From Nitrosopumilus sp. (GTDB lineage: Archaea; Thermoproteota; Nitrososphaeria; Nitrososphaerales; Nitrosopumilaceae), in assembly GCA_965204345.1 (NCBI GenBank), contig OZ241981.1:288001-352000 (forward strand): a DNA stretch of 64,000 nucleotides. The letters run 5' to 3'. Each line of letters opens with the position of its first letter. Position 1 is the first letter of the stretch. The translations under genes were made by a program, and so were the position numbers. Positions 3,530 through 16,690 of this stretch are shown here, in pieces. The notes beneath the pieces are model-generated. The model saw only the letters and a list, made by a program, of their open reading frames with translations, ran no database searches and was not told the DNA's origin.

Positions 3530-5848
3530 CTAGTTTGCAGATGCCTGCCAGTCAAATATTGTATTCCATGTGCTACCATCATACAGCTCGACTTTGAGAT
3601 ATTCACCGGCATCCAGTTCAGAGCTAACAAACCTGTCAAATGTGAGATGGCCTGACTGTCTGGAGGACAGATCCACAGGAGATAGCGTGATTGTGCATGT
3701 TCTATCACAGTTTGAGGAATAAGCTACCGTGTTGCCTGACTGGCTGTCAGGTACAGCAGTAGATGGGGTGCGAATTATCCAGTCAGAGTCACCGCTCTGA
3801 GTCCAGTTCTCCAGACTTTCAAAATCCTCAGATATTGTAGTTGGGTTGGGTGGGGGCGGTGGCGTCAACATGAGGGGATTGGTACTTGCCAGTGCAAAGT
3901 CTTGTACGGGCTTGTTTATGTTATCAATGTTAGAGCCGCTAACTGTTATGGTGTATGTTCCGGTACGAGTTGGGTTAAACACTGCAAACTCGTTTGTCTG
4001 GTGGTCTGATGTTGCCCGTATTGTTGTATTATCTGGTGAAGTTATTGTAAAATCCAAATTTGCAATAGGCACTGCTATATGTGTACGTGACAACTGTCCG
4101 TCTATGCTGCCATGCGGATGAACCAGCCATGACAGTATCACTTTGACTGGCTTTGATGTGTCCTGTACTGTAAACCAATACTGCTTTGTGTCGGTATTTG
4201 ACACAAGACGGTCTGATATTATGTGGGATGGTGCATTGTTGACATACCTGAGTGATTCAGCAGCATCTAGTATGCCAAATCCCACGTTATTGAGTATTTG
4301 AAGGGATGATGCCTCATTGTTTGCAATATTTCTGTCTGCTGGCTGCCTTGCATGAGAACAGTTGTCATTTGAGTTAACTTGCTCGTATTGGGCTGACGTG
4401 CATGGTATCGGACCAGTCCAGTTGGCACCCAAGAAAAGGGCAGCCTTTAGCTCAACAGGAGTCATCTCAGGCTTTAACTGCATCATAAGGGCAGTGACTG
4501 CACTTACCTCAGATGCCGCAAAGCTGCTTCCACCTCGAATAAATGTGTCAGTTGCTGCAACAGAACTTAGTACTTGAATAGCTCCTGTTGGTGCAACCAG
4601 CTCAGGCTTTAGTAATACAGTTCCTGGTGCAGGACCCCTGCCAGAATAGCCTGCTATTGCCGGCGTACCATCAGCATTGCTCTTTATTACACCTACGGTA
4701 ATTTCATTGTGTCCGCATCCGGGATGAGTTATTGATTGAAAAGCTGCCTCTCTTGCTATTCCGTTCTCATAAAGTATACCCCTGTTTCCAGCGGCTGATA
4801 CTGCAACCATTCCCTTGTCAACTGCCTCATTTGTGATCAGACTAATCGTGTTTGCATGGCTTGCACGACAGATTCCAAAACCAAAGCTCATGTTTGCTAT
4901 GTCTGCTCCGTTTTTAAAAGACCAATCAAGGGCATGTACCACGTCTCTTGCATGTGTCTTGACAAAGACGTGTTTGTTCTGACTATCCAAGCCGTGTCTT
5001 CCAATTGAGGCATCCAAAAGATTTACACCCGGTGCAATGCCGTTGTGGGCTGGCAGTCCTGATGCGGCAATGACTTGGGCTATCTGCGTACCGTGGGATG
5101 GAAAGGCAGAAGAGACCGCTCCGTTATTGAATCCTACCACGCTGGCAGCAGTTGCAGGACTACACATACCATTACTGCACTCTACACGGTCCGTGATTCT
5201 GTTGTTAAATGCGGTGTTGTGATTTATACCACTGTCAATTACTGCCACAGCAACCCCGCGACCATCAAGATTGGTGCCTGCTGCTGTACGAATATTGTTT
5301 GGAGTTGCATGTATGGTTTCCCTAGATTTATCAACTTCTAAAGTTACTGGAATTTCGCCATCTCCCATGGCATACACCTCGTCATAAAGTGAGAGTCCTG
5401 GAACTTTTGCAATTGGGATGGATGCAGTTACAAATGAGAGTGACTCGGCAGCCTCTATGTTGCGTGCACCAAGAAGATCAAGTTTCTCTACTATTGTATC
5501 CTTGTTCTCGCGTGCTGTCTCATCTGCATCTATACCATCACTTCTGGCCACTACGATTATGACGTCATAGTATCGCGTATCGTCATGCACCCCATAGTCG
5601 CCATCCTGGGGTACCTCAGATATGAGACCCTGGATTTTATCATAAAAACCGCCATCAAACTTGTATGGTATATCCACGTTTGCAGCAGAACTCAACGTAT
5701 TCTCATCTGGAATAAGATTGCCTGGCACTTCAAACTGTGCATTCTCATCGTCAGTCTGGGATGCAGACTCTAGTGGATATAAAAATAAAAGAAATAGTGA
5801 GAAAATTGTGATTGGTAACGTAACTTTTACACTCAATATAGACGACAA
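3530..5848 (-). CDS. secreted S8 subtilisin-like serine protease ending in a truncated beta-sandwich domain (S8-1)
   Basis: signal peptide; VIDSG, SHGT, AAGN, GSSFAA motifs; Pro linker then partial domain; TTG start. Confidence 0.9.
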   Translation of the reverse strand: MSSILSVKVTLPITIFSLFLLFLYPLESASQTDDENAQFEVPGNLIPDENTLSSAANVDIPYKFDGGFYDKIQGLISEVPQDGDYGVHDDTRYYDVIIVVARSDGIDADETARENKDTIVEKLDLLGARNIEAAESLSFVTASIPIAKVPGLSLYDEVYAMGDGEIPVTLEVDKSRETIHATPNNIRTAAGTNLDGRGVAVAVIDSGINHNTAFNNRITDRVECSNGMCSPATAASVVGFNNGAVSSAFPSHGTQIAQVIAASGLPAHNGIAPGVNLLDASIGRHGLDSQNKHVFVKTHARDVVHALDWSFKNGADIANMSFGFGICRASHANTISLITNEAVDKGMVAVSAAGNRGILYENGIAREAAFQSITHPGCGHNEITVGVIKSNADGTPAIAGYSGRGPAPGTVLLKPELVAPTGAIQVLSSVAATDTFIRGGSSFAASEVSAVTALMMQLKPEMTPVELKAALFLGANWTGPIPCTSAQYEQVNSNDNCSHARQPADRNIANNEASSLQILNNVGFGILDAAESLRYVNNAPSHIISDRLVSNTDTKQYWFTVQDTSKPVKVILSWLVHPHGSIDGQLSRTHIAVPIANLDFTITSPDNTTIRATSDHQTNEFAVFNPTRTGTYTITVSGSNIDNINKPVQDFALASTNPLMLTPPPPPNPTTISEDFESLENWTQSGDSDWIIRTPSTAVPDSQSGNTVAYSSNCDRTCTITLSPVDLSSRQSGHLTFDRFVSSELDAGEYLKVELYDGSTWNTIFDWQASAN

Positions 5849-5912
5849 TCATAATCGTAGTTATTTATCCTTATTGCGGGGGGGGGTTATGCTACTTGAT
5901 GAGTGTGATATT

Positions 5913-14407: not shown

Positions 14408-16690
14408 TTGAATTTAAAAACAACATTGCCGATCATAATTTTCTCACTAGTATTTTTACTTGTATATCCCCCAGAGTCCGCATCCCAGACTGACGATGAC
14501 AAACAGTTTGCAGTGCCAGGCAACCTTATCCCAGATGACAATACACTAGGCCCTGTTGCAGATGTGGATATACCAGCCAAGTTTGATGGCGGTTTTTATG
14601 ATAAAATTCAGAGTATCATATCTGATGTACCCCAAGATGGCGACTATGGCGTACATGACGGTACACGATACTATGATGTCCTAATTATAGTGGCCAGAAG
14701 TGATGACAAAAATGCAGAAGAGACAGCACGCGAGAACAAGGATATAATATTACAGAAGCTTGATCTTCTTGGCGCACGCAACATAGCGGCAGCAGAGTCA
14801 CTCTCATTTGTAACTGCATCCATCCCGGTTGCAGACGTTCCGGGACTCTCACTTTATGACGAGGTTTATGCCATGGGGGATGGTGAAACCCCAGTAACTC
14901 TAGAGATTGATACGACTAGGGGAACCGTACATGCAACTCCAAACGAAATTCGTACCGCAGCAGCTGGCACCAATCTCGATGGCAGTGGAGTTGTTGTGGC
15001 AATAATTGACAGAGGCATCAACCACAACATTGCATTTAACAACAGAATCATTGACCGTGTAGAGTGCGATGATACGTGTGAGCCTGCAACTGCTGCTAGT
15101 GTGATCGGCGTTAATAGCACTAATGATCTTTCTCCAGATTTTGCATCCCATGGTACACATATAGCCCAAGTTCTTGCCGCATCAGGACTTCCACATCATA
15201 ACGGCATTGCCCCAGGTGTAAAACTTTTGGATGCCTCAATTACCAGGCACACTGTAGATCAGGATAACAATCGTGCCTTCATTAGTGCAAATAGAAATGA
15301 TGTGGTACATGCCCTTGATTGGTCTCTCAAAAAAGGAGCCGACATAGCAACCACGAGTTTTGGTTTTGGAATCTGCAATGAAAATTCTGCAAACACAACC
15401 AACCTCATCACAAATGAGGCAGTTGACAAGGGAATGATTGTGGTATCATCTGCAGGAAACAGAGGCATAATTTATGGAGCACCAAACCAGCCAGTTTATC
15501 AATCTATAACTCATCCCGGATGCGGACACAATGAAATTACCGTAGGCGGAATAAATGATCGTGGTGAAACAATAGAAAGGGCAAGCTTTGCAAGCAGGGG
15601 TCCAGCACCCGGAACAGTCCTGCTAAAGCCCGAGATAGTTGCACCTGCGATACGTCTTCAGACACTGGACAATGTTGCAGATGCTGACACTTTTAGTCCT
15701 CGGTCCGGAACCAGCCTTGCCAATCCCCAGGTAAGTGCAACTGCTGCCCTGTTGCTACAGGCAGAACCTGATCTGACCCCAGTTGAGATAAAGGCCGCAC
15801 TTCTTCTTGGGGCTGACTGGCAGGGTCCAATCCCTTGCACGTCTGCACAGTATGAGAAAAACAATCCCAACGACAATTGTTCTTATGCCAGACAGCCATC
15901 TAACACTGCTGAGAGAAACAATTCTGGATCCCTTCAAATACTAAACAATGTGGGCTTTGGCATACTAAACACTGCAGAGTCACTCAGGTATGCTCAAAGT
16001 TCATCATCATCCCATATAATATCAGACAAACTTGTGTCAAATACTGACACAAAGCAGTACCGGTTTACCGTACAGGACACATCAAAACCGGTAAAAGTGA
16101 TACTGTCATGGCTGGTTCATCCGCATGGCAGCATCGCCGGACAGTTGACTCGTACTCACATAGCAGTTCCTATTACAAATTTGGATTTTACAATAACGTC
16201 TCCGGATAATACCACAATACGGGCAACATCAGACCACCAGACAAACGAGTTTGCAGTGTTTACTCCTACCAGCACCGGAACGTACACCGTAACAGTTAGC
16301 GGCTCAAACATTGATGACATAGACGAGCCGGTACAAGACTTTGCACTGGCAAGCACCAACCCTCTTACACTCACATCAACTACAATATCTGAGGATTTTG
16401 GAGATCTCGACAACTGGACTCAGAGCGGAGATTCCAACTGGACAATTCGCACACCATCTACTATAGTACCTGACAGCCAGTCAGGCAACACAGTAGCTTA
16501 TGCCTCAGACTGTGATAGAACATGTACAATCACGCTATCTCCTGTGGATTTGTCCTCCAGACAGTCAGGCCATCTCACATTTGACAGGTTTGTTGGCTCC
16601 GGACTGGATGCCGGTGAATATCTCAAAGTCGAGCTGTATGATGGCCGCACATGGAATACAATATTTGACTGGCAGGCATCAGCAGACTAG
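14408..16690 (+). CDS. secreted S8 serine protease ending in a truncated beta-sandwich domain (S8-2)
   Basis: IIDRG, SHGTH, SAGN, SGTSLANP motifs; paralog of S8-1 with the same C-terminal stop point; TTG start downstream of a gataaata box. Confidence 0.9.
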   Translation: MNLKTTLPIIIFSLVFLLVYPPESASQTDDDKQFAVPGNLIPDDNTLGPVADVDIPAKFDGGFYDKIQSIISDVPQDGDYGVHDGTRYYDVLIIVARSDDKNAEETARENKDIILQKLDLLGARNIAAAESLSFVTASIPVADVPGLSLYDEVYAMGDGETPVTLEIDTTRGTVHATPNEIRTAAAGTNLDGSGVVVAIIDRGINHNIAFNNRIIDRVECDDTCEPATAASVIGVNSTNDLSPDFASHGTHIAQVLAASGLPHHNGIAPGVKLLDASITRHTVDQDNNRAFISANRNDVVHALDWSLKKGADIATTSFGFGICNENSANTTNLITNEAVDKGMIVVSSAGNRGIIYGAPNQPVYQSITHPGCGHNEITVGGINDRGETIERASFASRGPAPGTVLLKPEIVAPAIRLQTLDNVADADTFSPRSGTSLANPQVSATAALLLQAEPDLTPVEIKAALLLGADWQGPIPCTSAQYEKNNPNDNCSYARQPSNTAERNNSGSLQILNNVGFGILNTAESLRYAQSSSSSHIISDKLVSNTDTKQYRFTVQDTSKPVKVILSWLVHPHGSIAGQLTRTHIAVPITNLDFTITSPDNTTIRATSDHQTNEFAVFTPTSTGTYTVTVSGSNIDDIDEPVQDFALASTNPLTLTSTTISEDFGDLDNWTQSGDSNWTIRTPSTIVPDSQSGNTVAYASDCDRTCTITLSPVDLSSRQSGHLTFDRFVGSGLDAGEYLKVELYDGRTWNTIFDWQASAD

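Follow-up and report, generated by a model that had tools for sequence, protein, structure and literature searches.

A MAM-like jelly-roll domain divided, very probably by a gene break, between two subtilases and a chimeric secreted protein of Nitrosopumilus sp.

The stretch of DNA analysed here, hereafter the window, comprises 64,000 nt of an archaeal genome assigned to Nitrosopumilus sp. (G000; 2.12 Mb, nine contigs) and corresponds to positions 288001–352000 of contig OZ241981.1 (C1); the sequencing runs that contain this stretch are labelled sponge or marine metagenomes. Two genes for secreted subtilases, S8a and S8b, lie in inverse orientation on either side of a gene for a giant secreted multi-domain protein, which we refer to as the scaffold. 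Each subtilase ends in the first two-thirds of a MAM-like jelly-roll domain, and the scaffold carries two tandem copies of the missing third. The initial annotation of this sequence inferred from these parts that each orphan third completes the fold of one protease in trans, giving a cellulosome-like assembly. We consider it very probable that the split domain originated in the breakage of a single gene. The features concerned are as follows.

3530–5848 (−): S8a, secreted subtilase of 772 aa with a truncated MAM-like tail, from translation; TAG stop at 3530–3532.
3533–3835 (−): S8a tail, N-terminal two-thirds of the jelly roll (8 of 11 strands), placed by alignment with strands counted in the model of an intact paralog.
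9374–13792 (+): scaffold, a chimera of 1472 aa with a scaffold-family N-terminal part, an intact MAM-like domain, HYR, two orphan units, an NHL propeller and an Ig/filamin-like end.
11030–11467 (+): intact MAM-like jelly roll of the scaffold (aa 553–698), of a distant subfamily 25–30% identical to the split domain.
12266–12427 (+): unit 1, orphan C-terminal third (three strands) with Pro-rich linker, first copy of a 162-nt repeat.
12428–12589 (+): unit 2, a further orphan third from the second repeat copy, joined directly to the NHL module, which is also the ancestral order.
12590–13792 (+): NHL beta-propeller and Ig/filamin-like C-terminal module, apparently from the broken S8 gene, with weak Pfam NHL and Filamin matches and an alignment to G148 and P0008 (see below).
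14408–16690 (+): S8b, the other truncated subtilase (760 aa), in the opposite orientation to S8a; TAG stop at 16688–16690.
16385–16687 (+): S8b tail, N-terminal two-thirds of the jelly roll, placed by alignment including the long S8 protein of G148.

S8a and S8b share 74% protein identity and belong to Pfam family Peptidase_S8 (100 and 122.8 bits, respectively, against a cut-off of 21.8; hmmscan of S8a, S8b and the scaffold at E ≤ 0.1). Stretches resembling the catalytic triad motifs were picked out by eye, without alignment to a reference enzyme (S8a: VIDSGI, HGT and GSSFAAS; S8b: GTSLANP), as were signal-like hydrophobic stretches at the N-termini of the proteases and the scaffold. S8a ends in ...TWNTIFDWQASAN and S8b in ...TWNTIFDWQASAD, each followed by a TAG stop; the common end reads ...TWNTIFDWQASA(N/D) and then TAG, so that both proteins stop after DWQASA(N/D), at position 104 of the 151-residue MAM-like jelly roll. 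Two ways of extending the tails were rejected. Translation beyond the S8a and S8b stops by TAG read-through yields no homology to the missing third, and an extension of the tail match to query position 128, across two TAG codons, is weak and falls in DNA of an insertion sequence (IS)-associated repeat.

The tails correspond to positions 1–104 (strands 1–8) and the units to positions 103–151 (strands 9–11), an incomplete fold in one chain with its missing strands in another, as fragment complementation would call for. The 47-aa unit cores begin at scaffold aa 969 and 1023 (nt 12278–12418 and 12440–12580), within a 162-nt tandem repeat spanning 12266–12589. In a 25-row alignment, the tail ends and unit starts fall in one loop where homologs carry insertions and deletions, which places the break in a variable loop. 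An AlphaFold2 model of the intact domain of paralog P0004 (151 aa, 33-row alignment) has 11 strands and a mean predicted local distance difference test score (pLDDT) of 95.2. Its best Foldseek matches are the LAST-MAM astacin (8a28), reelin (3a7q, 5b4x and 7lyu), the Kgp cleaved adhesin (3m1h and 4itc) and MAM domains (8yt7, 5l73 and 2c9a), with TMq 0.63–0.75, E values of about 1e-6 and 13–18% identity to the solved structures; the MAM fold itself is recovered through 8a28, 8yt7, 5l73 and 2c9a (probability 1.00, TMq 0.66–0.73). Pfam MAM (PF00629) is precomputed for the long relatives P0006 and P0162, whereas S8a, S8b and the scaffold gave no MAM match at E ≤ 0.1, just a sub-threshold Reelin_subrepeat-B. 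The S8a tail also aligns with the intact scaffold domain (BLASTP: scaffold aa 552–651; E value 3e-16 for the alignment including the preceding domain). Much of what the initial annotation described is borne out here: the shared stopping residue, the one intact domain and two tandem orphan thirds of the scaffold (by translation and alignment), the complementarity of tails and units (by alignments including intact paralogs and G148) and a fold of the MAM/cleaved-adhesin kind (by matches to MAM, reelin subrepeat and gingipain adhesin structures).

The two parts occur together elsewhere. Three long S8 paralogs in G000 (C1:410247–414440, C1:1943073–1947098 and C7:2262–6182) combine the counterparts of tail and unit in one uninterrupted domain, ...DWQASARDDDNTWHTESYDL...MIDNMSIQN, with E values of 1e-55 to 1e-59 for the tail and 2e-14 to 1e-19 for the unit, which argues that the complementarity of tail and unit is not due to chance. 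S8a matches one long paralog at C1:1944896–1947239 with 94% DNA identity, the match ending 5 nt before the S8a stop. At the DNA level, unit 1 is 88.6% identical to a long S8 C-terminal part at C1:411981–412129 and unit 2 is 93% identical to C1:411972–412115.

A sister species of the same genus (G148) retains what appears to be the ancestral arrangement: an intact 1785-aa open reading frame (ORF) of order S8 ... P-domain - MAM - MAM - NHL - Ig, directly upstream of a serpin gene and 69–71% identical in the MAM-like domain. S8b aligns to residues 8–660 and 1230–1331 of this protein, whose residues 1333–1785 match the scaffold from unit 2 through to the C-terminus (61% identity, E value 2e-173); the two halves therefore abut within one or two residues of one ancestral protein. 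The metagenome protein P0008 likewise has the intact domain with NHL-Ig directly after it, and eight further proteins of 1661–1792 aa match the query in its unit-NHL part; S8 and P-domain families are precomputed for them. No intact S8-MAM-NHL gene is left in G000.

The scaffold itself is a chimera: of the four scaffold-family paralogs in G000, the other three lack the units and NHL, and its homology to them ends at 12244. For its N-terminal 549 aa, no solved relative was found at E ≤ 0.1, and the sole profile match, to the metzincin Mep72 (E value 0.0076), lies far below that profile's cut-off. A single-sequence fold of the stretch from the HYR end through units 1 and 2 (mean pLDDT 49.2, predicted TM-score 0.40) was too poor to judge unit-unit packing.

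The stop shared by S8a and S8b recurs beyond them. The junction GCA-[A/G]AC-TAG-TT is common to five copies, namely S8a, S8b, a relic in the window and further copies at C1:252695 and C6:33118, and three of the five are dead tail relics: those at C1:252695 and C6:33118 contain an additional in-frame TAG, and the window relic is a 46-codon stub. The next ~600 bp are common to four of the five copies, while S8a after TAGTT runs instead into the repeat of an IS240-type transposase gene. The live tails are no better conserved than the dead relics (identity 94.8% for S8a against S8b and 94.5% for S8a against the relic). The initial annotation had noted the third S8 end in the window, which holds at 60128–60268; the two additional relics, the three intact paralogs and the single inherited junction go beyond it. 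The remaining features of the window that bear on this history are listed below.

1907–3259 (+): ORF of an IS240/IS6-type DDE transposase (Pfam DDE_Tnp_IS240, 54.3 bits against a cut-off of 27).
57976–59361 (−): serpin gene marking the ancestral locus (Pfam Serpin, E value 1.3e-119).
59354–60127 (−): NHL-Ig end relic of an ancestral long S8 gene (last 257 codons), 86.6% identical in DNA to 13016–13787 and syntenic with G148.
60128–60268 (+): dead S8 tail relic, with the last 46 codons, the same TAG junction and S8b-like downstream DNA.

The NHL-Ig relic is joined head to head to the tail relic, and the serpin/NHL-Ig/tail-relic locus appears, from its gene order, to be the wreck of a second ancestral copy at the syntenic place. 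At its start, the window serpin runs into the end of the NHL-Ig relic. The same overlap is seen in G148 between the intact long S8 gene and the neighbouring serpin, a 420-aa ORF recognised as serpin-like by eye; the window serpin has an N-terminal run of near-identical TGTTMMPATDD repeats. Small out-of-frame NHL-Ig fragments also lie outside the window, at C1:88506–88836 and C1:670318–670524.

The IS-associated repeat beside S8a extends to ~3528–3537, directly abutting the S8a stop, and 2587–3537 is 94.5% identical to C1:714281–715231. No terminal inverted repeats of this element were found with a 14-nt seed and up to two mismatches, and the junction on the scaffold side is free of IS copies. 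A 7-nt stretch is common to the end of the truncated S8 genes (CTGCAAAC) and the beginning of unit 1 (CTGCAAAG). IS6-family elements generate 8-bp target duplications, and the closeness of the two sizes is a lead only. The IS240/IS6-type transposase has an N-terminal zinc-finger-like region and occurs again at ~44466–45785 (−) and shortly before the window starts; the full copies of the element, at 79–80% identity, number at least three, with the partial copy at C1:714281–715231 (94.5%).

Taken with the intact paralogs, the relics, the transposase and the mosaic paralogs described below, the presence of the junction on five copies points to common descent: the shared stop is one inherited junction spread by recombination rather than the product of convergence or independent truncations. 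The bodies of these genes have other histories. By the Nei-Gojobori method (own script), the long forms L1944 and LC7 differ by a synonymous distance (dS) of 0.53 in the body and 0.015 in the tail; the S8a body groups with L412 and L1944 (dS 0.13) and the S8b body with LC7 (dS 0.25), and despite these different body types S8a and S8b have the truncated end in common. Of ten S8 loci in G000, the domain is intact in three, a related domain closes the protein in three others, MAM is absent from two, and the last two are S8a and S8b. An in-frame TAG interrupts the catalytic part in two of the three loci with the related terminal domain. The two MAM-less paralogs end after a PPC-like domain, indicating that the catalytic part can stand without MAM. 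Outside the window, near-identical inverted S8 genes at C1:1760854–1764573 (−) and C1:1849984–1853703 (+) are interrupted in the catalytic domain by one and the same in-frame TAG (GAPN, stop, PVYQSITHPG; S8b has Q at this place) and are probably duplicated pseudogenes.

Such a family could be read as a recombinational variation system, whose pool for gene conversion and inversion, made up of S8 paralogs, partial tail cassettes and the inverted genes S8a and S8b, would shuffle the C-terminal modules of a host-associated archaeon's secreted proteins, the split being one transient state. The discordant body and tail histories and the sharing of tail, TAG and ~600 bp downstream among four copies speak for this, as does the placement of S8a and S8b, which form 2.37-kb inverted repeats (80% DNA identity) flanking an 8.5-kb segment with the scaffold gene. 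In another assembly, the 760-aa protein P0010 alternates between segments resembling S8a and segments resembling S8b, suggesting inversion or gene conversion between the two genes or, alternatively, an assembly chimera. The consulted sections of PMC6790972 describe sponge-associated ammonia-oxidising archaea with expanded secreted S8 proteases, adjacent serpins, HYR proteins and many transposases, a gene content in keeping both with this idea and with the context of the window; the split domain goes unmentioned in those sections. We nonetheless regard a variation system as improbable: neither a recombinase nor a recombination site nor a regular cassette structure came to light, the mosaic P0010 is possibly an assembly chimera, and relics with extra stops resemble decay rather than a maintained silent library.

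In a region full of paralogs of 80–95% identity, the truncated ends and orphan units might also be mis-joins between paralogous repeats made during assembly. DNA contigs of three runs break near 16555–16700, among the matches listed, and in an RNA-library run the bin 3484–3967 (S8a tail) has no cover, again among the matches listed; neither was used as evidence. Among the contigs listed, none bridges the HYR-unit junction (12245–12270). Two RNA-library contigs match the region without differences: a 667-nt contig from another study (X3) matches 16099–16765 and crosses the S8b stop, and one of 777 nt matches 12308–13084 and spans unit 1, unit 2 and the start of NHL (32 of 1138 matching pieces to the window listed; DNA is possibly present in RNA libraries). 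Since proteins from other assemblies repeat both the truncated end and the chimeric junction, and the TAG junction is present in five copies, we consider an artefact very improbable.

The comparisons document the break point, the ancestry of the two halves, the chimerism of the scaffold and mosaic recombination among the paralogs. In the course of events that we propose, an ancestral secreted protease of ~1800 residues (S8 - PPC-like - ... - MAM - MAM - NHL propeller - Ig), encoded in an IS-rich and often recombining genome, would have been split at a surface loop within the final MAM-like jelly roll. Its 5′ part would persist as the stand-alone subtilases S8a and S8b, with TAG one codon past the break, and as three dead tail relics, while the 3′ piece (the last three strands, NHL and Ig) would have joined, in frame, an unrelated giant secreted protein after its HYR region, where a later 162-bp tandem duplication would have produced the second unit. 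The truncated proteases would then act as ordinary secreted subtilases, their incomplete tail of 101 residues being unfolded or trimmed off. The orphan units would link HYR to NHL, and the halves would re-associate only incidentally, if at all.

Functional complementation in trans, the reading of the initial annotation, would have a scaffold unit insert, after secretion, into the incomplete jelly roll of S8a or S8b and so rebuild the fold and re-tether the protease non-covalently to the lost NHL-Ig and the rest of the scaffold. The geometry is favourable, with halves that abut within one or two residues of the ancestral sequence, a break in a loop and a unit that supplies strands 9–11 of 11. 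The initial annotation had predicted that tail and unit would model as one jelly roll, and they do form a large predicted interface. A complex model of the S8a tail (104 aa) and unit 1 (54 aa), with a 22-row alignment each, scored 0.74 against 0.00 for the best control, passing a mark attained among solved complexes in 58 of 80 cases and among mismatched pairs in 2 of 110; such a result is to be anticipated when one domain is cut in two and both alignments contain its intact relatives, and it shows plausibility and likeness, not binding in vivo. The model has 277–280 contacts with at least 92% contact agreement between runs and a partner pLDDT of at least 71. The unit strands pair with tail strands 5, 6 and 7 and lie against tail residues 41, 51–53, 67–72 and 83–87, and tail pLDDT is 76–79 with the unit versus 47–49 with unrelated partners. 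Complementation is thus, as modelled, sterically natural. It would also have a precedent in the chaperone-free extracellular strand complementation reported for archaeal filaments.

The distribution of the split offers less encouragement. A domain scan of 1.84 billion representatives returned 572 relatives at E ≤ 0.001; among the best 150 of the 572, nearly all span the whole domain and only S8b itself ends at position 103. The domain is present in 22 of 150 other genomes of the genus, and none of the 150 has a break at position 104 (in an earlier sample, five of 40 relatives had the domain, the 40 comprising 24 members of the genus and 16 from other genera of the order). The only further case is one assembly of close kin, in which a single 154-kb contig carries both a truncated S8 (P0007, 763 aa, ending DWQASAN) and a scaffold (P0159, 1398 aa) with the same HYR-unit-NHL-Ig chimera and a single unit. 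The co-occurrence of the two halves anticipated by the initial annotation was thus found in this assembly and in no other genome of the genus surveyed; the break is older than the divergence from it and the duplication younger. At G009:C1:1873091–1873619 (−), a relative has a same-family domain broken between positions 74 and 72 over two frames (ORFs of 967 and 401 aa), probably a frameshifted gene, which shows that breaks of the domain occur elsewhere at other positions.

Given the same end on dead relics, a family in visible flux, the MAM-less S8 paralogs and the absence of the split beyond close kin, we favour the reading that S8a and S8b are stand-alone subtilases with vestigial tails: the split is probably, if with some reserve, the scar of a gene break, neutral or tolerated today, with no dedicated docking system. 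Several observations weigh against so passive a view. The two halves have uninterrupted ORFs, neither the fusion nor the duplication disturbed the reading frame, and the break falls in a variable loop, the kind of place that tolerates a split best. The arrangement has been kept between the window and the second assembly through 5–28% protein divergence by region. The identity of the scaffold to P0159 is 81% in unit 1, 89% in unit 2 (by eye), 75% in the intact MAM domain, 72% in HYR, 88% in NHL and 93% in Ig; the orphan unit appears no more diverged than the folded domains, which conversion from intact paralogs could explain. The ratio of non-synonymous to synonymous rates (dN/dS) between units 1 and 2 is 0.37 (6 synonymous and 10 non-synonymous differences), not clearly neutral, although of low power and confounded by gene conversion. 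The two RNA-library contigs cover both regions. Other dN/dS values (tail: 0.27–0.34 for S8b against long forms and 0.35 between long forms; units: 0.22–0.94) rest on small counts with gene conversion likely, and no conclusion was drawn from them; the N-terminal-part rows of S8a were unusable, the tail segment having been shortened by the anchor motif.

Functional complementation in trans is, in our estimation, a doubtful proposition. The conservation statistics are powerless and confounded by gene conversion, the same truncated end sits on dead relics, the two secreted proteins would have to meet unfolded and the related scaffold P0159 has one unit. A working natural split, with truncated subtilases re-tethered to the lost NHL-Ig by three-strand completion and the duplicated unit providing two-site docking for up to two proteases per scaffold, is likewise unlikely. 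What the initial annotation had right was the complementarity of the parts; its proposed docking gives way to a gene break, to which the intact G148 gene points. Its pairing of two units with two proteases is weakened by the single unit of P0159, and its cellulosome-like assembly finds neither cohesin/dockerin-like logic nor, in the 150 other genomes of the genus, a conserved split.

Around these genes, the 3′ flank of S8b (16691–18947) consists of ~2.2 kb of repeats with no ORF of at least 80 aa on either strand. It includes a stretch at 17335–17496 that resembles a miniature inverted-repeat transposable element and matches more than 20 places in the genome, and a 54-aa Cys-rich zinc-ribbon-like ORF at 17067–17231 (−) whose DNA recurs too. 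Upstream of the scaffold lie tandem paralogs at 6012–7352 (+) and 8005–9258 (+) with a WING-49 domain (NCBIfam NF058652, E value ~1e-14), and the gene block 5963–9867 recurs elsewhere in the genome at 84–90% identity, often upstream of scaffold-family genes. Proteasome and ribosomal genes occupy 60.5–64 kb of the window.

In gingipains, the adhesin domains are cleaved out of a single polyprotein and remain associated. The present arrangement resembles MAM, reelin and gingipain jelly rolls in placing the domain C-terminal to a protease, as in gingipains and meprins; unlike in gingipains, the domain itself is here divided between two genes. Its closest mechanistic likeness would be to donor-strand complementation, as in chaperone-usher pili and archaeal cannulae, threads and bundling pili, of which chaperone-free forms in archaea have been described: an incomplete beta-sandwich would be completed outside the cell with strands from another polypeptide. 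Those systems exchange one strand between like subunits, build filaments and belong to conserved families, whereas here three of 11 strands, in one lineage and from a gene break, would pass between two different proteins. The history itself recalls IS-mediated gene fission and chimera formation, in which one ancestral ORF yields a truncated 5′ gene and a 3′ part fused elsewhere, and an IS240/IS6-type element abuts one end of the break; the difference is that the break falls inside a domain and not between domains. Like cellulosome scaffolds, the protein is large, secreted, multi-domain and flanked by enzyme genes, but the proposed contact is fold completion rather than domain-domain docking, and no cohesin or dockerin Pfam family was detected in S8a, S8b or the scaffold at E ≤ 0.1. 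A limited literature search found no paper on a split MAM-like domain shared by a subtilase and another protein.

Were the halves to reassemble, this would be a rare natural case of intra-domain gene fission rescued by extracellular fragment complementation, and the parts would make a compact tag/catcher-like pair of ~100 aa and 47 aa; such docking would rest on a principle born of a gene break, distinct from both cohesin-dockerin pairing and the one-strand complementation of pili. If instead the split is a scar, the locus would be a well-documented instance of the breaking and re-fusing of large secreted proteins in IS-rich, paralog-rich symbiont genomes, with ancestor, products and relics all visible in one data set. 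It would then be useful to annotators, who would otherwise call these genes normal, and would bear on how the protease and adhesin-like repertoires of sponge-associated archaea diversify.

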